IMG/VR virus record: IMGVR_UViG_2778261056_000002
Reading direction: 5' to 3' (one strand)
DNA length: 36,391 nt
From: a virus
Lineage: Duplodnaviria > Heunggongvirae > Uroviricota > Caudoviricetes
Made by a program: the position numbers and the translations under genes. Under the pieces are notes generated by a model. It was given only the letters and a program-made list of their open reading frames with translations. It made no database searches and was not told the origin of the DNA. Positions 13,149 to 33,874 of this stretch are shown in pieces. Within the stretch, counting starts at the first letter, position 1. Every line of letters begins with the position of its first letter.

Positions 13149-14318
13149 TTACTTATCTCCTGCGTAACGGGCGACATCCTCTGGATCAACGCCCATCATT
13201 GAACAAATGGCGATATCGACATCAACGTCATCGCCGGTTTTAATCTGCGCCGAAGCCGGTGACGGCGTTTTGGGTGGTTTGCCGCCGGTCTGGGTGCTGC
13301 TGAGTGCGGCAAGCGGGGTGGTTTTATCCAGCCAGGTTTTAAAACCGTTGATATCGCGACGAGCGTAATCTTTCGCCCAGTCTTCCAGCGTCGGAAGCAG
13401 TCGCCCGTCAGACAGCGCCGCCTGAATCAGTGCCCCGGCTTCGGCCTCACCGGACTGTTGCGCCAGTGCGGCATAACGCCCCTGAAGTTCTTCATATGCC
13501 GTCAGAGGAATATGCTTCGTCGGGTCATAGGCATTTGCTGACAGGCTGGCGATTTGCTCGTCTTTCTGATTCAGCAGGGTCAGCAGACCAACAGAAGCCG
13601 CTGCCGTTCCTTTGCCACCAGAGACAGCATCAATAATTTTTTGCAGCTCTGCGCAGACTTCCTCTTCGGTTGAGGTTTCCGGCAGCGTCAGCAGCCAGCG
13701 TAACTGCGCGAGTAAATTTGCTAATTGTTCCGGGTTCACGGTTTTGGTCTCCGTTTCAGTTGACAGACTCGCCAGACGGCTGGCCGCAGCCAGCATGACC
13801 GCGTCCATACCGTCCAGCGCAGGGGTATTGGTCAGCGCAGCATGTAACAGCTCCAGCACTTCGCCGCGCTTGTTGTAGGCAAAAACAGGGGAAATAAACT
13901 TGTACTCACCGGCGGCAATCATGGCCGCCGCGTTCTCCGTCCACTCCACACCGGTGGCATACAGGCCCGCACCTTCTCGCCATTCCACCTGGCTGAACCA
14001 GCCCGCCGCCGGGGCGGGCTTGCCGTTGTTTACGGCGCGCAGCGTCTGATGTTCGTAATCAATGACAAAAGGCGTGGCGCGGGCGGCCACCTGTGCGACA
14101 AGCTGCGCGGCCAGTCCGGCAGTCAGCACCCATTTACCGCTTTCGACTTCATCGGTATGTGGGCGACCATCCACCGCGCTGAACTCGCCCGCCGGAAACA
14201 GCTGGATTTCGCTGTGGGTTGCTTTAGTAATTTCGAGGCTTAACGCCGCAATGTTCATCTTCATACGCGGCATGATGACGGAAGGGGAACACGGGGTACT
14301 GTGGAGGGTGTTCAGCAC
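13149..14318 (-). CDS. Head maturation protease / scaffold (Mu I-like)
   Basis: 389 aa ORF with long coiled-coil C-terminal half; precedes capsid gene; true start may be internal (MPRMKMN...). Confidence 0.75.
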   Translation of the reverse strand: MLNTLHSTPCSPSVIMPRMKMNIAALSLEITKATHSEIQLFPAGEFSAVDGRPHTDEVESGKWVLTAGLAAQLVAQVAARATPFVIDYEHQTLRAVNNGKPAPAAGWFSQVEWREGAGLYATGVEWTENAAAMIAAGEYKFISPVFAYNKRGEVLELLHAALTNTPALDGMDAVMLAAASRLASLSTETETKTVNPEQLANLLAQLRWLLTLPETSTEEEVCAELQKIIDAVSGGKGTAAASVGLLTLLNQKDEQIASLSANAYDPTKHIPLTAYEELQGRYAALAQQSGEAEAGALIQAALSDGRLLPTLEDWAKDYARRDINGFKTWLDKTTPLAALSSTQTGGKPPKTPSPASAQIKTGDDVDVDIAICSMMGVDPEDVARYAGDK

Positions 14319-14356
14319 CCTGCCATAACGGGAAAGGATAAAAGGGGAAATAAAAC

Positions 14357-14381
14357 CGTTTTTAAAACCCTTTTAAAAACG
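14357..14381. promoter_or_regulatory. Perfect palindrome CGTTTTTAAAA-CCC-TTTTAAAAACG in the G-I intergenic gap
   Basis: 11 bp arms are exact reverse complements; it sits in the only sizeable non-coding gap of the morphogenesis block. Confidence 0.4.
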
Positions 14382-14473
14382 ATTCTGACAGCATTTACGG
14401 GGTGCAGTGCTGTAATGCCTCATCCGTGAGGCGTTTATGTTGTCACATGCGATTACAGCGCGTTTGTCGCCAT

Positions 14474-15025
14474 TCAGTCAATCACACGCGCAAAATAGCG
14501 GTTTGCGGTGTTCTCCAGCTCGTCGATGTCGTCCTGCACAAGCTGAAGGAAGGGGCGCGCGGGCATGTTGACCGTATATGCCCCGACTGTTGCGCTCTGC
14601 ACAAAATTACTGTTGCGCTTTTTCACAAAGCGGGGGCTGACGCTGCCGTTTTTGTACTGTTTAAAATACAGGTTCTGCGTCCGTGCCTGATGGCGGATTT
14701 CGCCGCCTTCGTTGTGGATACGGGCATAACGGACATTTGTCCCGACCGTGGCCTCGTTATTGTTAACCGCAGAGCGGATACTGGCAGCCAGTCGCCCGGA
14801 CTTCTGAAGGATTTGCCCGGGGCCGCGTCGCTTCGCATAAGCCGGACTCCAGCCCATCCATTTCGGGCGACCCTGTTGTTCAAAGTTAGTCTCAACCGCA
14901 TCCAGCATGGAGCCTGCAAGTGCCGTCATCAGGTCGCGCCGGTCCTTCACGGAACGAATCAGTTTCCCCAGCGTGGTGTTATACGCGCTTAAATCAATCT
15001 TAATATCCAGTTTACCGCTGCTCAT
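14474..15025 (-). CDS. Virion morphogenesis protein (Mu G-like)
   Basis: 183 aa ORF downstream of the F-like gene. Confidence 0.7.
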   Translation of the reverse strand: MSSGKLDIKIDLSAYNTTLGKLIRSVKDRRDLMTALAGSMLDAVETNFEQQGRPKWMGWSPAYAKRRGPGQILQKSGRLAASIRSAVNNNEATVGTNVRYARIHNEGGEIRHQARTQNLYFKQYKNGSVSPRFVKKRNSNFVQSATVGAYTVNMPARPFLQLVQDDIDELENTANRYFARVID

Positions 15026-17773: not shown

Positions 17774-19414
17774 TTACCATCCTCCTGAACCAAAACGCCC
17801 GCCACGGTCACGCCCGGTGCTGCGTGGGGTGTGTATCTGAAATTTTGCGCTGCGCGATACCGCCAGCGTCCACAGCATGTGCAGACAGTCCGGGCCATCA
17901 TCGTGGTCGGCTTTGGGGTAGTGGCGCAGCTGGTCAATCAGTGTCTGATGTGTGTGACTGATGCGGATCAGGCCGTTGGCCATATGCGGCTGAAGGGATT
18001 CGATACGCAGCGCCTTATCCTCCAGCGGGATGACCGGCAGCGCCGGAACCGGCACACCCAGCGCCGCCGAACGCTCAACCAGCACGGTACGCAGAAACTC
18101 CTGAAACTGGACGGACTCAAACGACCAGCACAGGCAGTGATATTCACGCTGATACTTGATCACGTCTTCGATAAGTTTATTCGGCAGACGTCGGCGGATA
18201 TCGGCTTCAACCACATCCAGAATGCCGGTAAAGCGGTTAAAGCCCCCCACGAGAATGGCCGACGGGTCGCGGTTTTTATTCTTCTTCCCGAGGCTGGGGT
18301 CAACAGCGCCGTAGAACACCCATTCATCAAGACGGTTAACCCAGAACTTAATGCAGCCCGCAAACAGCGCATCTTCACCGCTGACCGGGTCGTTCTGGTA
18401 TTCAGAATCAAAGGTGTCATGACCGTCACGAACACGGATTTTCATCAGTGCCAGCAGGGGACGCGCCGCCCATGACACCACCGACCCGGCGAGCATGTCG
18501 GCTTCGTTCTGTCGGTAAAGTGCCTCCGCTGCTTCCGGCTGTTTGTTGCGGATGAGTTCTTCCCACTCGTCCCACAGCTTCATATTGGCAGGCCACTGAA
18601 TAACGGCCTTAAAGCGGGCTGTTTTCCACATCGGGTTATTCAGCGTGCGCGACAGCACGGAGTCGTAATGCAGGATGGTTCCGATATAAATAATATCGGT
18701 TTTACCGCCAGCCTCGCCCAGCGGCATCACGGTTTTGGTGAGCCAGTCATGCAGCTTGTCGCGCTGCTCCGGGTTACGCACCATCTCGTCGTTCTCGATG
18801 TCGTCGAGGATAACCAGGTCAGGACGGTACGGACCGTGGCGCAGACCACGCAGCTTTTTACCACTACCGGCAACGGTCACCTTGATATTGTTGGCCGTGA
18901 CGATGGTCCCCATACGCCAGACGCGACCCTGCCCGCACACCTCCGGGAAATCGTTTTTTAAACGGGGGTTAAATTCCAGTTCAGCCTTGATGGCTTCCAG
19001 CATCGGATAAGCCTGGTCGATACTGTCCATAATGATGACCGGATAATGCTTAATGGCCCGGATAATGTTCCACAGGGTAAACAACTGAGTCACCAGCGTG
19101 GATTTTGCTTCACCACGGGGGGCGGCGATGGCGTCGTTCTCCGGGGCCGGGCTTGCCACAACCTGTGGCAGACGGCTGAACAGGTATTTATGCAGCTCAC
19201 TTTTTGCCGGGTTGCGGACGTAATGCGGGAAATAGTTTTCGACAAAATAATCGTAGCCCGTCACCGGATCGCAGACTGCCGCCCGGCGGGCCTGTGTGGC
19301 CTGTGGGTTAACATCGAACCCCAGACATTCAGCCTCAATGGTCTGGCGGAGGTTGGCGATGTACTCCTGCAGGCTTCTCTGAAACTCTTTAATGGAAAGT
19401 TTACGTTTTGCCAC
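17774..19414 (-). CDS. Terminase large subunit (Mu gp28-like)
   Basis: ORF track gives 17774..19471 starting at TTG; that start overlaps the methyltransferase gene by 56 nt. A GTG at about 19414, 1 nt after the methyltransferase stop and preceded by AGGTG, is the more plausible start. Confidence 0.8.
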   Translation of the reverse strand: MAKRKLSIKEFQRSLQEYIANLRQTIEAECLGFDVNPQATQARRAAVCDPVTGYDYFVENYFPHYVRNPAKSELHKYLFSRLPQVVASPAPENDAIAAPRGEAKSTLVTQLFTLWNIIRAIKHYPVIIMDSIDQAYPMLEAIKAELEFNPRLKNDFPEVCGQGRVWRMGTIVTANNIKVTVAGSGKKLRGLRHGPYRPDLVILDDIENDEMVRNPEQRDKLHDWLTKTVMPLGEAGGKTDIIYIGTILHYDSVLSRTLNNPMWKTARFKAVIQWPANMKLWDEWEELIRNKQPEAAEALYRQNEADMLAGSVVSWAARPLLALMKIRVRDGHDTFDSEYQNDPVSGEDALFAGCIKFWVNRLDEWVFYGAVDPSLGKKNKNRDPSAILVGGFNRFTGILDVVEADIRRRLPNKLIEDVIKYQREYHCLCWSFESVQFQEFLRTVLVERSAALGVPVPALPVIPLEDKALRIESLQPHMANGLIRISHTHQTLIDQLRHYPKADHDDGPDCLHMLWTLAVSRSAKFQIHTPRSTGRDRGGRFGSGGW

Positions 19415-22319: not shown

Positions 22320-22501
22320 GAGTTTCTCCTGTAAATCTGAGCCACTGACGGCCCGTAAATAACACCCTGTCAAAGGCACATAAGCCTTTTGCAGGGCGCT
22401 ATCCCTTAAGGTGCCTTGTGGTCTGAGTGGACAGGGTAAACGGTCTGGTGTGGTGGGTACTGCTGGGGGAGTTCAGCACCCCGCGGCGGCGGGGTGATAA
22501 A

Positions 22502-22805: not shown

Positions 22806-23273
22806 TTAATCAAAAAGCCCCACCTGGGTGGGGCTTTTCAGCGAAGTCTGTTTTTGTCGTCGGTGTATCAGCTGCCATGCGTACCGGTCTGAAATGCCGT
22901 AACGGGGACAGAGCAGTGCCAGCGCCTGCCGGTGTGAGCATCCGTCTTTTACATGCTGCTGTAAATCAGCCATAAAACGGGTGTTACGCAGGGCACGTAA
23001 CGCATGATCGCAACGGGGAATGTAAAACGGAGCACCGCCAAGAAAGCGGATCAGTTTGTTGATTTCGTCTTCGGTCAGCACGTCATGTAACAGGGCATGG
23101 ACACCGCCGGTGCGTTCGGCGTGTGCGCCGGTTTTACCGCTTAACGTCACGCCACCAAAAGAACGGATTAACCGGGTCAGGGCGGGGAAGCCAATCACGC
23201 TAATCAGTTGCTGCACGGAATCGGGCAGCAGTGCCTGCGCATCGCGAAGATCTGTTTCACTGAAGGTCTGCAT
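22806..23273 (-). CDS. Mor/C-family transcriptional activator
   Basis: 155 aa; position between early-operon terminator and lysis genes; sequence recognised as Mor/C family. Confidence 0.7.
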   Translation of the reverse strand: MQTFSETDLRDAQALLPDSVQQLISVIGFPALTRLIRSFGGVTLSGKTGAHAERTGGVHALLHDVLTEDEINKLIRFLGGAPFYIPRCDHALRALRNTRFMADLQQHVKDGCSHRQALALLCPRYGISDRYAWQLIHRRQKQTSLKSPTQVGLFD

Positions 23274-29542: not shown

Positions 29543-30436
29543 TCAGTGAATTAACATTTCTGCGAATTTATCAATGGCCTGCACACTGACCGGCGCATCG
29601 CTGATATCACAAATCCGGTACACACCACGCGCCAGCTTGAACAGACGGCGGGCATTACCCAGCGAACGTGTATAAAGCGCCTCGCTGATTTCCGGTTCTG
29701 CTGCTTCCGGCATCAGCCCGGTGGCTATCTGGTTAAAATCTTCCTGCGACAGCGTATCGCCCAGGTTAAGCGCCAGCGCTACACGGCTGTATAACTGGGC
29801 GAACTCACCGCGACGTCCCTTGAGGTTAATCAGAAGGCGTGGCATACCCGCCAGGACAATCCCGATACCCGCTTTGTCATGCAGACGGCGCAGAACCTCC
29901 AGTGCGCGATAGGGGAGCAGTTCAGCCTCGTCCACCATCAGCAGGCGACCGGAATCACGCAGTTCTCGCACACATGCATCAATCAGTTCGTGGATATTGC
30001 CGCGAACTTTTACCCCCAGCTGGCGGCACAGCTCCTCAAGCAGTGTTCTGGCTGTATAGCCCGGGTCGGCTTCAATCAGGACCGCATCCCGGTTTCTGGC
30101 GGCGTATTCACGCAGAATCATTGTTTTGCCAAGACCTGCCGCGCCATACAGTACGCAGATTTCACATTCCAGATGAGCATAGGCCAACACCTCCAGTCCT
30201 TTGGCAGCCATACCGGTGGCAACAAATTTCGCTTTAATACGGCGGCTGTTTTCCTTTTCCCGCTCACGGGTCACAAAGGCAGAAATGCGTTCTTCAATAT
30301 CAGCCATATCGCCCTGATATTTACCCTGTAAATACTGGTTGATAACGGCGCTGCTACGACCAATAGCACGGGCGACGTGGGTCTGCGTATAGCCGCGACG
30401 GGCCATTACGTCATTTAATTGCGTAATTAAACTCAT
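29543..30436 (-). CDS. Transposition protein B (AAA+ ATPase with N-terminal HTH)
   Basis: 297 aa; N-terminal HTH (RRGYTQTHVARAIGRSSAVINQY) and Walker A GAAGLGKT; directly downstream of the transposase. Confidence 0.85.
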   Translation of the reverse strand: MSLITQLNDVMARRGYTQTHVARAIGRSSAVINQYLQGKYQGDMADIEERISAFVTREREKENSRRIKAKFVATGMAAKGLEVLAYAHLECEICVLYGAAGLGKTMILREYAARNRDAVLIEADPGYTARTLLEELCRQLGVKVRGNIHELIDACVRELRDSGRLLMVDEAELLPYRALEVLRRLHDKAGIGIVLAGMPRLLINLKGRRGEFAQLYSRVALALNLGDTLSQEDFNQIATGLMPEAAEPEISEALYTRSLGNARRLFKLARGVYRICDISDAPVSVQAIDKFAEMLIH

Positions 30437-30454: not shown

Positions 30455-32497
30455 TTAACGGTTGTTTGTGCCGTTTTTCTTTAAATTGCGTTCGCGTTCA
30501 GATGCGAATAAATAAAGTTCTTCTTTTTCCTTTTTCTCCGGGCGTTCCAGTCCATATCCCAGATTAAAGTCAGGCTTCTGCGTAATAGCCGGGGTAAGCT
30601 CGCGTTTAGCCTCTTCGATTTTCTGCGTGGCCCGTGCAATGCGGCCCCTGACGCGTTTCTCCAGTTTTTGTTCGATAACTGGTTTAGCGAAGGCATCAAC
30701 CTTGTTACCGTTCCAGATGGCATCGCAGATATAAGAGCCATCAGCCCGCCGGACAATGACACTGTTTGCATCATGAATATCGTAACTGACCCTGACTTCA
30801 TTCCCGTGCTCTGCGGCCAGCTCATACGAGTAATAAATATTGTTGAATAACTGAATTTCCCCGCGAAATGTTTTGCGCGTCACTTCCGGCCTGAACATTT
30901 CATGCAGTTCTTCCGGCGACAGGAAATCAATTTCAACATTCTGCTCTTTTATCAGTTTCCGGCGATACGCTGCCGGGCTGTAATGCTCGCCATCCTCTTT
31001 GCGAGGAAGGCTGCTGTGTGGCCGGTTGTTATAGCGTCTGACTTCCAGTTCTATGGCTGCCATCAGTTGCTCAAAGGTGGGGACTTCATCCCTTGCCTTA
31101 ACCTGCCGCTTTGTCAGCTCTTTCCCTTTGTGGGTGGCCTTAATGGCTGACTGCATAATCCGTTGCTGCATCATTACGGTTTCCTTGTCTGCTCCCTTTG
31201 AGCAGTACGTCTGGAAACTCAGGGCCACATCCCGGGGAATTTCCTTGTTAAGCCTTTCAATCACCCCGCGCCCCTGTGGGTTACCTGGTATCCCCGTGTG
31301 ATGCTCCACACCCAGCCGGGGCAAAATCCCGGTAATATCAGCGTCAAGCACCCGGTTTTTTTCGCCGCCCCCGTTATCGGAGTAATAAATCAGCGGTATC
31401 CCGTGCTGTGACATGCCATGACGCAGCGCATCAGCAACGGCTATCACGTTCTCCGACAGGGACAGTGACCAGCCCACAACAAAGCGCTGCCCCGCATCCA
31501 TAACCAGCGTCACCTCTGGCCGGAAAATATTGCCGGTCAGTGGGTTAAACGCGGTCATTTTCATACAGTGACCATCCCCGACCCATACCGCATTAACCGG
31601 TAATGTGCTCCAGTCGCGCCGCACAAAGGGATTGAGCGAACGCCAGGCTGAACCGGTGGAGCGGAAACGCTCTTTAACAATCACCGGGACGCTGCTTAAC
31701 ACCCGTCTGACTGCGTGAACTGAAGGCAGTGCTGCCAGCATTCCCGCATCATTCGCGTGTTTTTCATGCCACCAGGCTGAAAACTCGCGATACGCGTATT
31801 CAACGGTCGGGCGCTTCCATGAGCGATAGAACATAAAGAAATCGCTCAACCACCAGACCTGCTCCCACGGTGTTCCCTTATGATGACCGGGAGCCAGTAA
31901 CGCCAGTAACTGATTGGCATCACCGCGCGCCATCACCCAGCTGGAGTACCAGCTATCCAGGCTGCCGGTGCTGACACCGGTTCGCTTTCCCTGACGTGCA
32001 TTTGCAGTATTAGCTGCTTCGATAATGCGGTCAGGTAACGCCCCCATGCGCACACCATCAACGATGTGCTTTAACGCGGCCTTCCTGGTCATTCCGGCGT
32101 ATTCACGCAGTTTATGCACTTCAGTAGCCAGCAATATCCGCGCATCAGCGATGGCCTTTTGCTTGTCAGTCAGTGCCTGGACTTCGCGTAATGCCAGTTC
32201 CGGGCATTTGACCATCACCTCCAGTTCATCGCGAACGGCGACGTTTTTAACTGCCTTCTGCTCAACCACGGCGGGCAGTTGCGTATCTTCCAGGACCTGA
32301 TGGGTCAGGCGCTTACGTAAAACTTTCTGCGCTTCAGCGGGCAGGCAGTCGATGTGATACTCGAATGCTTTGGTGCCTTCACGCTTGCGCTTCCATTCCG
32401 GGTGCGTCTCTGTGATCCGATTGAGCGTCCAGCGCACCCCCTGAACTGTACCGGGCAAACCAGGAAGACCGGCCAGCTCATTGGCTGAATAAAACAT
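30455..32497 (-). CDS. DDE transposase A (Mu A-like)
   Basis: 680 aa; DDE catalytic core; ATG overlaps the Ner-like stop (TAATG). Confidence 0.9.
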   Translation of the reverse strand: MFYSANELAGLPGLPGTVQGVRWTLNRITETHPEWKRKREGTKAFEYHIDCLPAEAQKVLRKRLTHQVLEDTQLPAVVEQKAVKNVAVRDELEVMVKCPELALREVQALTDKQKAIADARILLATEVHKLREYAGMTRKAALKHIVDGVRMGALPDRIIEAANTANARQGKRTGVSTGSLDSWYSSWVMARGDANQLLALLAPGHHKGTPWEQVWWLSDFFMFYRSWKRPTVEYAYREFSAWWHEKHANDAGMLAALPSVHAVRRVLSSVPVIVKERFRSTGSAWRSLNPFVRRDWSTLPVNAVWVGDGHCMKMTAFNPLTGNIFRPEVTLVMDAGQRFVVGWSLSLSENVIAVADALRHGMSQHGIPLIYYSDNGGGEKNRVLDADITGILPRLGVEHHTGIPGNPQGRGVIERLNKEIPRDVALSFQTYCSKGADKETVMMQQRIMQSAIKATHKGKELTKRQVKARDEVPTFEQLMAAIELEVRRYNNRPHSSLPRKEDGEHYSPAAYRRKLIKEQNVEIDFLSPEELHEMFRPEVTRKTFRGEIQLFNNIYYSYELAAEHGNEVRVSYDIHDANSVIVRRADGSYICDAIWNGNKVDAFAKPVIEQKLEKRVRGRIARATQKIEEAKRELTPAITQKPDFNLGYGLERPEKKEKEELYLFASERERNLKKNGTNNR

Positions 32498-32915: not shown

Positions 32916-33563
32916 ATGACCAGAAATGATGATGCTTTTTCTTTTGTCGACCGGGGAAAAGAAAGTTTCAGAGAGCGTTTAGTAAAGCTGATAGGTAACC
33001 GCAGTGTCAGAACTGCTGCGAGTGATTGGGGAATTCCCCCTTCAACCTTAAACAACTACATTCATAAAGGAACTGAGCCTTCTTTTAAAATAGCTTGCCT
33101 TATCTCAGATAAAGAGCAGGTGAGCTTAAATTGGCTCGCTTACGGTAAGGAACCCAACGCCAAAGAAGGTTCTCTATCAAATCAAACAGCGCAGCCTTCT
33201 CCCGATATTACAAACGAGCTAGTTAACGAGTTATTGAAAAGAGCGTCCACAGAAGTTAAGGAGCAACTGATAAGTGCAATATGCGATATGGGCATTAAAG
33301 GAATCTTGGAACGCCTACAGCAACCCACCAGGCAAGCTACGCAGGCCGACAGCGACCTGGACGAACTGGAGAATGCCATCAGAAGACTAAACATCAGGGA
33401 ATCGCTTAAAGACACTATTTGCATGGCATTGGCTGGTAATGAAGAAATTGACAAAGAGATTTTGCGTCGTATCGAATCTCGTATACGAGCTGGGTCGCCG
33501 AGTGGTCATACCGTTGCCACGCCGGAGCAAGAAACGAAGCCTGTAAGCAAAAAATCAGCATGA
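32916..33563 (+). CDS. Prophage repressor (HTH, Mu c position)
   Basis: 215 aa; N-terminal HTH (VRTAASDWGIPPSTLNNYIHKGTEPSFKIACLISDKEQVSLNWLAYGK); only phage gene on the plus strand, transcribed toward the prophage end. Confidence 0.65.
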   Translation: MTRNDDAFSFVDRGKESFRERLVKLIGNRSVRTAASDWGIPPSTLNNYIHKGTEPSFKIACLISDKEQVSLNWLAYGKEPNAKEGSLSNQTAQPSPDITNELVNELLKRASTEVKEQLISAICDMGIKGILERLQQPTRQATQADSDLDELENAIRRLNIRESLKDTICMALAGNEEIDKEILRRIESRIRAGSPSGHTVATPEQETKPVSKKSA

Positions 33564-33722
33564 GCGCCTACTGCCTGGTGGGCGCATGCTGCCAACTAAT
33601 TAGCGACATCCACAACAAAACCAATACAGAAGACGGATAAGAAAGGGACAAATCAACCAAGGTTAAAACGGGTTTTAAAAGTATTTAAACGCCGTTAAGT
33701 TTGTAGCAGAACCAGATCAAAA

Positions 33723-33866: not shown

Positions 33867-33874
33867 ACCCCACA

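Follow-up and report, generated by a model that had tools for sequence, protein, structure and literature searches.

A phased AT-tract array between genes G and I of a Mu-like Escherichia coli prophage as the candidate right arm of a central strong gyrase site

The DNA considered here, hereafter the window, is a stretch of 36,391 nucleotides (IMG/VR record IMGVR_UViG_2778261056_000002) that PHROG and Pfam searches identify as a Mu-like transposable prophage of Escherichia coli with its genes on the minus strand. Our subject is the intergenic gap between its homologs of genes G and I, and in particular a perfect AT-rich palindrome situated within that gap. The gene G homolog (14474-15025, minus strand) codes for a virion morphogenesis protein that matches PHROG 26 at 5e-44 and Pfam PF05069 at 2e-26 and is annotated in an identical E. 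coli genome, while the gene I homolog (13149-14264, minus strand) codes for a head maturation protease/scaffold protein that matches Pfam PF10123 at 5e-100 and PHROG 328, with its start codon as assigned by PGAP. Elsewhere in the window the same searches recognize the repressor (32916-33563, plus strand), transposases A (30455-32497) and B (29543-30436), a single-copy activator matching the Mor family (22806-23273), and likewise GemA, the large terminase, the portal, F and the major head protein. Over 2 kb surrounding the palindrome, identity to E. coli strain GPEC349-628 is 100%, and 55 of 5,426 complete E. coli genomes reach at least 90%; none of the phage records searched matches the window closely. 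The relationship to Mu is distant, the I proteins being 31% identical and Mu G and the G of the window showing no similarity detectable by tblastn.

The prophage extends over 35,673 bp (L002, positions 1227-36899). Its left end corresponds to window position 33874 and is confirmed by a break in alignment, five related contigs aligning through ...CCCCACA and diverging beyond it. The right end lies outside the window and was placed at L002 36899 from the geometry of the transposase sites, that is, from a symmetric spacing in which GCCCAGAA is separated by 27 nt from the terminal CA on either side. With the right end placed in this way, the palindrome is centered 19.5 kb in from the left end, at 54.7% of the prophage length.

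The G-I gap occupies 209 bp (14265-14473), is bounded upstream by the G stop codon and downstream by the gene I ATG at 14264, and is the sole sizeable noncoding gap from the terminase through the major head gene. The palindrome, CGTTTTTAAAA-CCC-TTTTAAAAACG as read on the plus strand, lies at 14357-14381 and consists of perfect 11-bp arms around a 3-nt spacer. A scan that tolerates up to three mismatches finds the pattern a single time in the window and not at all in 100 dinucleotide-preserving shuffles; the folding energy of the palindrome as single-stranded DNA is -9.2 kcal/mol (z = -4.9). Nearer to G, on the minus strand at 14417-14432, is a small GC hairpin (GCCTCA-TCCG-TGAGGC; GCCUCA-CGGA-UGAGGC in the sense RNA) with a fold of -9.3 kcal/mol (z = -3.0). 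On the sense strand this hairpin lacks a U-tract, its 3' arm adjoins the predicted gyrase core described below, and one-sided C-to-T changes within the E. coli clade preserve G.U pairs in its stem; it may be an RNA 3'-end structure, or else a remnant of the canonical terminator that relatives carry after G. A longer inverted repeat, GCTGTAAT...ATTACAGC at 14409-14463, surrounds the small hairpin; the E. coli clade does not keep its arms strictly, and for that reason it is probably non-functional. An Rfam scan gave no matches above threshold. A first-pass annotation, made from the letters of the sequence, had already noted the exact 11-bp arms, the GC hairpin, the gap as the only substantial one in the head block, the identities of G and I and the location at about mid-prophage, and all of these stand. 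Its span for the gap, 14319-14473, does not, since a GTG at 14318 had been taken as the start of gene I whereas the start that is both annotated and conserved among relatives is the ATG at 14264.

On the sense strand, the palindrome forms part of a longer series of AT tracts (GTAAAT, AGAAT, T5A4, T4A5, T4AT3 and T4AT) that recur roughly every 11 bp with short G/C runs between them, at spacings of about 11, 9, 12, 11.5 and 11 bp. The center of the series is a conserved block at 14346-14388 (minus strand), CAGAATCG-T5A4-GGG-T4A5-CGG-T4AT3-CC, which contains the palindrome and is followed at 14325-14345 (minus strand) by a less conserved continuation in which TTTTAT, TTT and TTAT stand between C/G runs. 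Tandem Repeats Finder assigns the block a period of 11-12 and 2.5 copies, and in AT periodicity it stands 3rd at length 45 and 8th at length 50 among about 36,000 such segments of the window; by the same measure, the Mu gyrase site's right arm ranks 2nd in the Mu genome. Among 18 distinct gap sequences of the E. coli clade, only 2 of the 43 columns of the block vary, whereas elsewhere in the gap 59 of 169 do so (Fisher p = 2e-5). In the first 85 nt of the gap, where the putative core and left arm of a gyrase site would lie, 33 columns are variable; 7 of 26 are variable over 14320-14345, and the remainder of the gap, with the promoter, varies at about 30% of its columns.

To trace the array beyond this clade, relatives were collected as 43 loci from bacterial genomes, found through the I protein, and as 80 viral contigs, found through G. 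In the more distant of these the palindrome is often lost and a tandem direct repeat at an 11-bp offset persists, as in L005 (CGTTTTTAAAAGGGGTTTAACAGGGG), L016 (GGTTTTAACCGGGCTTTAACCG), L020 (GTTAAACAGGTGTTAAACAGG), L038 (ATTAAACAGTGATTAAACAG) and L008. Tandem repeats are likewise present in L014 (ATTTAACGGGGGGTTAACGGGG), three units occur in L006/7 (GTTTAAATCG-TTTTTAAACGGGG-TTTAAATGGGG), and L013 carries the units GTTAAACGCG...ATTTAAACGGGTTTTAAACAGG. Units of the TTAAAC type at 11-bp offsets occupy the same gap in Mu-like prophages whose I proteins are 38-66% identical to that of the window and whose hosts include Photorhabdus, Xenorhabdus, Buttiauxella, Undibacterium, Chitinimonas, Natronospirillum, a Burkholderiales metagenome-assembled genome (MAG) and others. 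Tandem 9-mers at offsets of 10-13 are found in 19 of the 43 gaps compared with 90 of 481 control windows (p = 3e-4), and the strongest AT-periodicity window of the 4-kb locus falls within the gap at 11 of the 43 loci, where about 3.4 would be expected (p = 4e-4). By this comparison of sequences, what the relatives keep is a tandem array of TTTAAA(C)-type or T(n)A(n) units phased at 11-12 bp, not the dyad symmetry, and the perfect palindrome is the form that the conserved array takes in this clade. The geometry is simple: T(n)A(n) is self-complementary, so that tracts of this kind, when repeated directly, are at the same time repeated in inverted orientation, and two adjacent CG-flanked tracts form a palindrome. 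When the exact units were sought at other places in Mu and in the window, the shared 9- to 11-mers proved to be within chance expectation. No TTAAAC array is present in the candidate strong gyrase site region of Pseudomonas phage Ab30, which means that not every transposable phage bears the signature. In a close relative, L065 (IMG/VR contig 2645727604_000008), the sequence diverges fully about 70 nt into the gap, partway through the hairpin and shortly before the contig ends, which may reflect an insertion or an assembly break beside the predicted gyrase core.

The invariance of the block within the E. coli clade also bears on its possible role as RNA. In the sense transcript the block forms a 16-bp hairpin (-12.3 kcal/mol) with C-G/G-C pairs at its base, followed by GUUUUAUUU, and hairpin plus U-tract coincide exactly with the invariant block. 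The palindrome could then be an intrinsic terminator and nothing else, ending the long late transcript that runs from the lysis genes through G, without relation to gyrase. Such a device would fill a need, as the canonical GC-rich terminator that relatives carry after G (-15.1 kcal/mol in L004, -13.4 kcal/mol in L005) has decayed in this clade; L004, L005 and L008 have a canonical hairpin and T-run at the position of the small GC hairpin, and the relatives with such a terminator right after G have G proteins 76-82% identical to that of the window. In Mu, moreover, the predicted terminator likewise lies across the tandem units, and its end is the homologous GTTTTATCTTCC. The wider comparison speaks differently. 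The units are kept where no hairpin is possible (L005, L008/L069, L006/7, L020, L038 and L016), where a hairpin lacks a U-tract (L067, L068, L071/L004 and L072), and in relatives that possess a separate canonical terminator; the hairpin itself persists in L066, L067 (via a G.U pair), L068, L071 and L072, the U-tract only in the window's clade. In addition, the stem is almost entirely A-U, a terminator scan made no call, and the fold of the antisense strand is not significant (z = -0.55). We therefore consider a terminator-only role unlikely. Because the U-tract is confined to this clade and several relatives keep the units without a hairpin, termination cannot explain the wider conservation of the array; it is plausible as an extra, clade-specific function and is compatible with a gyrase role. 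That the block, in this E. coli clade only, also ends the long late transcript after G, just upstream of the gene I promoter, by means of the 16-bp AU-rich hairpin and GUUUUAUUU is a possibility to which we would give somewhat less than even odds.

The same gap of Mu offers a comparison. As the first-pass annotation had stated, the GenBank record of Mu places in its 196-bp G-I gap both a gyrase cut site (17879/80) and the late promoter P_I (17977-18043), together with a predicted terminator, and the gyrase site lies at 48.7% of the genome. Immediately to the right of the cut site Mu reads T6A4-CGCGCCACGGGA-TTTTTAAACCGG-TATTTAACGGTG, or, in shorter form, T6A4-CGCG...ATTTTTAAACCGG-TATTTAACGGTG. 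The window resembles this strong gyrase site (SGS) in lying in the same gap between the same two genes near the middle of the genome, in having phased T(n)A(n)/TTTAAAC tandem units downstream of the core in the direction of gene I, in the GTTTTAT(Y)TTCC that directly follows these units in both, and in a predicted terminator that overlaps the arm with P_I just beyond. The asymmetry of conservation, with the arm more constant than the core and left side, also agrees with Mu genetics; in the published deletion analysis of the Mu SGS, the right arm proved essential, whereas the left could be dispensed with. The two sites differ in several respects: the array in the window is more regular and more AT-rich and fills the position at about +30 that is GC-rich in Mu, its period is nearer 11.5-12 bp, its two strongest tracts form a perfect palindrome whereas Mu has none, it stands 4.7% off-center as opposed to about 1.3% in Mu, and it is a candidate gyrase site predicted from sequence. 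A MAFFT alignment brings together the tandem units of Mu, an Sp18-type prophage, the window, L004 and L006, along with the GTTTTAT(C/T)TTCC that follows them, with a mean column identity of just 46% and with three registers possible.

The Sp18-type sequence merits separate comment. According to a review, the SGS of the Sakai O157:H7 prophage Sp18 (Oram & Pato 2004) is the sole heterologous site reported to support Mu replication (PMC10052514). The sequence compared here comes from O157:H7 strain Z852 rather than from Sakai, and its assignment to the Sp18 type is assumed. Its G-I gap reads TTTCTAACCTG-TATTTAACGGGC-TTTAAAATCTG. Like the window, it is a candidate SGS in the G-I gap of a Mu-like E. 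coli prophage, with tandem TATTTAAC/CTTTAAAA units and a GCATTAC core motif in common; unlike the window, it belongs to another prophage lineage with no megablast match, and its units are not palindromic. A motif GCAT(T/A)A, found by inspection, is shared by the window, Mu and the Sp18-type gap: the Mu core reads GGCATAA^AATC^AG, the Sp18-type core TGCATTACC, and the sense strand of the window at 14419-14407 GGCATTACAGCAC. On the general side, the gyrase motif obtained for E. coli by Topo-Seq has periodic arms over +20 to +66 with a GC periodicity of 10.75 bp (Sutormin et al. 2019, PMC6379681), and cryo-EM of gyrase on DNA places the AT repeats of the right arm facing the C-terminal domain (CTD) of GyrA with the GC repeats outward. 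From the predicted center, the AT patches of the window fall at about +15, +26, +36, +48, +59 and +70, those of the consensus at about +20, +30, +39, +50 and +62; the consensus, however, combines a G+C content of about 69% with narrow AT peaks (PMC6379681), and the window has long tracts and short spacers.

Taken by analogy with Mu, these features lead us to propose that the palindrome is the most conspicuous portion of the right arm of a Mu-type central SGS, a reading to which we assign a probability of roughly 57%. The element lies in the G-I gap of a transposable phage that carries transposases A and B, a repressor, GemA and a Mor-family gene, stands close to mid-prophage (a central location being needed for optimal Mu-type replication), and consists of a phased AT/GC arm downstream of a candidate core. 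In the first-pass annotation the palindrome was proposed as a central gyrase site, and in its main point this is the best-supported reading, given the same gap and the phased units common to Mu, the Sp18-type prophage and distant relatives; what needs revision is the emphasis, for the shared feature is the tandem array and not the symmetry, and the palindrome would belong to the wrapping arm, at about +20 to +60 from the cleavage point by Mu analogy, and not to the point of cleavage itself. The predicted cleavage core, sense GGCATTA^CAGC^AC, lies at 14405-14420 on the minus strand, with a register that is uncertain. With the center near 14411, the invariant block would fill the wrap region from +23 to +65, and the more variable stretch of the gap would be core plus left arm, both of which tolerate change in Mu.

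Scoring with an AT/GC template provides weak support. A template of the arm only, covering +15 to +62 and symmetrized from the published Topo-Seq consensus, served as a surrogate for the gyrase motif matrix; on Mu it recovered the true center to the base, ranking it 5th among the 36,670 positions of that strand (10th overall), and in the gap of the window it peaks at centers 14413 (z 3.08) and 14433 (z 3.02). Alternative registers one helical turn away have their centers at about 14392 or at about 14426-14433. The first of these, obtained when T5A4 is aligned with the T6A4 of Mu, was demoted on an arm-template z of 0.4, and the MAFFT alignment points to a third.

Several observations weigh against a gyrase site. 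A full-length AT/GC template derived from the Topo-Seq consensus was dropped after it failed the positive control on Mu, and the arm-only peak in the gap is only 57th among the clustered peaks of the window, compared with 10th for the true site in Mu. Three registers about one helical turn apart fit the sequence, so that the predicted center is ambiguous over about 14392-14433. The tracts of the block are long (9 nt), its G/C spacers short and its period 11.5-12 bp, against a consensus with a period of 10.75 bp and about 69% G+C. Among the heterologous sites tested, just one supported Mu replication, according to the review, and resemblance is thus no guarantee of function (PMC10052514). Selection for a terminator, with which the invariant block is coextensive, could explain the constancy within the clade. 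Finally, the two units are near-identical within each distant phage and different between phages, a pattern that pure bendability does not require.

If the gyrase reading is correct, the site would operate as in Mu. Gyrase would bind with its cleavage center in the region of 14405-14420, some 20-40 bp upstream of the palindrome; the phased AT/GC array would wrap round a GyrA CTD and present the T-segment; and processive supercoiling from this near-central site would aid synapsis of the prophage ends for replicative transposition.

The last of the points raised above, the pairing of units within each phage, is what would be expected of co-evolving sites, and it suggests another view, in which the tandem units are iterons for a sequence-specific binder, either a phage protein or a host nucleoid protein, that organizes the prophage center, with gyrase strength secondary or absent. 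The pairs GTTAAACAGG in L020, ATTAAACAG in L038 and TTAACGGGG in L014, each present twice, illustrate the pattern. A similar phased T(n)A(n) array, TAAAACGGGTTTTAAAAGTATTTAAAC on the plus strand at 33660-33692, has been kept some 185-215 bp inside the left end, where it stands between the transposase sites and the repressor gene's end. Five related contigs retain it although their repressors are 60-97% identical and their flanking sequences vary, conservation extending even to relatives with repressors of only 60-85% identity, and Mu carries TTCAAAAAACGTTCAAAACCG at a similar place. Tandem TTWAAM pairs, that is, TT[TA]AA[AC] at 10-13 bp, are also enriched over shuffles, with 4 sense-strand loci in Mu and 4 in the prophage against a dinucleotide-shuffle mean of about 0.1; the sites include 20085, 29816-29845 and 35224 in Mu (L003) and 18973 and 403 in the window. 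The pairs away from the SGS locus may, however, reflect a general excess of phased A-tracts in E. coli DNA, where clusters of this kind are over-represented. We know of no candidate protein that binds this place in Mu, the block fits neither the IHF nor the Fis consensus when judged by eye, and the 11-mer common to the center and the left end is just marginally unlikely by chance. T(n)A(n) tracts phased at 10.75-11 bp, on the other hand, are exactly what the wrap around the gyrase CTD prefers, and duplication by slippage offers a simple route to a phased signal. An iteron role is accordingly improbable in our estimation. Equally doubtful is a combined version in which TTAAAC-type units are lineage-co-evolving iterons, read by a phage or host factor or by gyrase together with such a factor, and link the center to the left-end array as a topological domain; a weaker version, in which the phased TTAAAC array is simply a lineage-wide signature of functional central gyrase sites, is more probable than that.

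Next to the array, toward gene I, lies an element with the properties of a late promoter. An activator box, GTGCTGAACACCCTCCACAGTACCC at 14294-14318 on the minus strand, was recognized by a 24-nt pattern together with a core present in three copies, and is followed at 14272-14277 (minus strand) by CATCAT, a -10-like hexamer identified through the geometry common to all three boxes and through a hexamer-plus-ATG layout that is kept in relatives. The core, GTGCTGAAC (14318-14310 in the gap), has exactly three sense-strand copies in the window, starting at 22479, 14318 and 2402, and 32 nt after each there is a -10-like hexamer (TACCCT, CATCAT or CAGACT). CTGAACNCCCNC is likewise present three times without mismatch, each time on the sense strand. 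For the extended 24-nt box the sole matches are 14294-14317 and 22455-22478, where chance would give none, and a third exact CTGAACACCCTC occurs at 2388-2399. The three complete layouts of box plus hexamer (22430-22479, 14265-14318 and 2349-2402, all on the minus strand) precede the lysis-head block, gene I and a gp46-like baseplate gene, respectively, and the first lies downstream of the sole Mor/C-family gene, as Plys follows C in Mu. Relatives retain a CTGAA(C/G)...TTCA element at the position of the gene I box. A scan for sigma-70 promoters found none in the gap, as expected, because late promoters of this type are activator-dependent.

We conclude from these sequence layouts that the P_I analogue is an element distinct from the palindrome, located some 60 bases downstream of it at about 14318-14265, and that its box is presumably the binding site of the single Mor/C-family activator (22806-23273). 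In Mu, C protects its late promoters from -30 to -55 around a dyad centered near -43.5, and there is no -35 element. The late promoters of Mu (Plys, P_I, P_P and Pmom) share with those of the window an activator box upstream of a -10 hexamer, the lack of a -35, repetition before several late operons, and a Mor/C-family gene upstream. They differ in the box itself, which is GTGCTGAAC... here and (C)CATAAyCCC in Mu, and in the number of regulators, since one Mor/C-family gene is found here where Mu has both Mor and C; because of this single activator gene, the regulatory cascade may be simpler than that of Mu. A further difference concerns the leader, which is about 30 nt at Mu P_I, whereas in the window the -10 hexamer stands 6-7 nt from the ATG (CATCAT-GCCGCGT-ATG at 14262-14277 and CAGACT-GGCGGC-ATG at 2347-2361, both on the minus strand). 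With so short a distance there is room for little or no leader, which suggests that the gene I and gp46-like messages are leaderless or nearly so. The same GACACTGGCGGCATG geometry is seen just upstream of gene I in distant relatives (L012, L013, L018, L023, L040 and others).

The first-pass annotation had offered, as its other option for the palindrome, a late-promoter element, and this does not stand. A Mor/C-type activator site, or some other part of the gene I promoter, might have been suspected, as C of Mu binds a dyad-symmetric element, the palindrome is situated upstream of gene I within the gap where Mu has its P_I, and a -10-like TATCCT occurs about 29 nt downstream of the palindrome center. 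The candidate TATCCT, which would put the palindrome at about -41, was dropped given the GTGCTGAAC layout at three late operons. At each of these the arrangement is GTGCTGAAC, 32 nt and a -10, and the other two are without a T(n)A(n) palindrome; nowhere else in the window does the palindrome pattern recur; and its center lies about 104 bp upstream of the predicted start, at about -104, as opposed to -43.5 for C. A dyad near -43.5 that recurs at other late promoters is a property of the GTGCTGAAC box and not of the palindrome, and in Mu the homologous units are about 100 bp upstream of P_I, inside the SGS. That the palindrome serves as an activator site or promoter part is, on this evidence, very improbable.

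Some observations on the prophage ends and on the gap in other phages are recorded here for completeness. Both ends of the prophage (window 33874; L002 36826-36899) bear repeated TTCTGGGCG/GCCCAGAA motifs, presumably transposase sites, and at each end the motif starts at position 18 counted from the terminal TG. A 5-bp target-site duplication, sought in order to fix the right end, was not found, the flanks being GCACG on the left and TTTGC on the right. In GPEC349-628 the prophage sits between trg and ydcA; these two genes would be expected to flank a hokB/mokB region, which appears to be absent, and its apparent loss suggests a rearrangement at the insertion site. The G-I gap itself may be a hotspot for cargo insertion: five loci (L009, L011, L012, L018 and L019) have apparently unrelated coding sequence ahead of gene I, with no G homolog detected within 1.5 kb upstream of gene I, and the gap of Ab30 (L128 737-800) contains inverted repeats that we take to be an anti-CRISPR promoter with Aca1-type sites.

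The Mu SGS is a model substrate for work on gyrase mechanism and for cryo-EM, and it is to our knowledge the strongest gyrase site known. Candidate SGS sequences in Mu-like prophages have been the subject of earlier studies; the generality of central gyrase sites among transposable phages is stated in the literature to be unresolved. For annotation, the present analysis fixes the late promoter and the start codon of gene I and suggests leaderless late messages. One and the same sequence may further serve two uses, as a wrap signal in DNA and as a terminator in RNA, and the more regular and more AT-rich right arm of this clade would be a natural variant for the study of how arm sequence tunes wrapping and processivity. 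Were the gyrase reading true, the strategy of a central gyrase site would extend to a lineage in which the I protein shares only about 31% identity with that of Mu, and the 11-bp-phased TTAAAC array, seen in many G-I gaps of gamma- and beta-proteobacterial prophages, would be a simple signature by which to locate such sites. The signature makes the conservation of central gyrase sites across transposable phages a testable question and, if the signature reading is true, would settle it.

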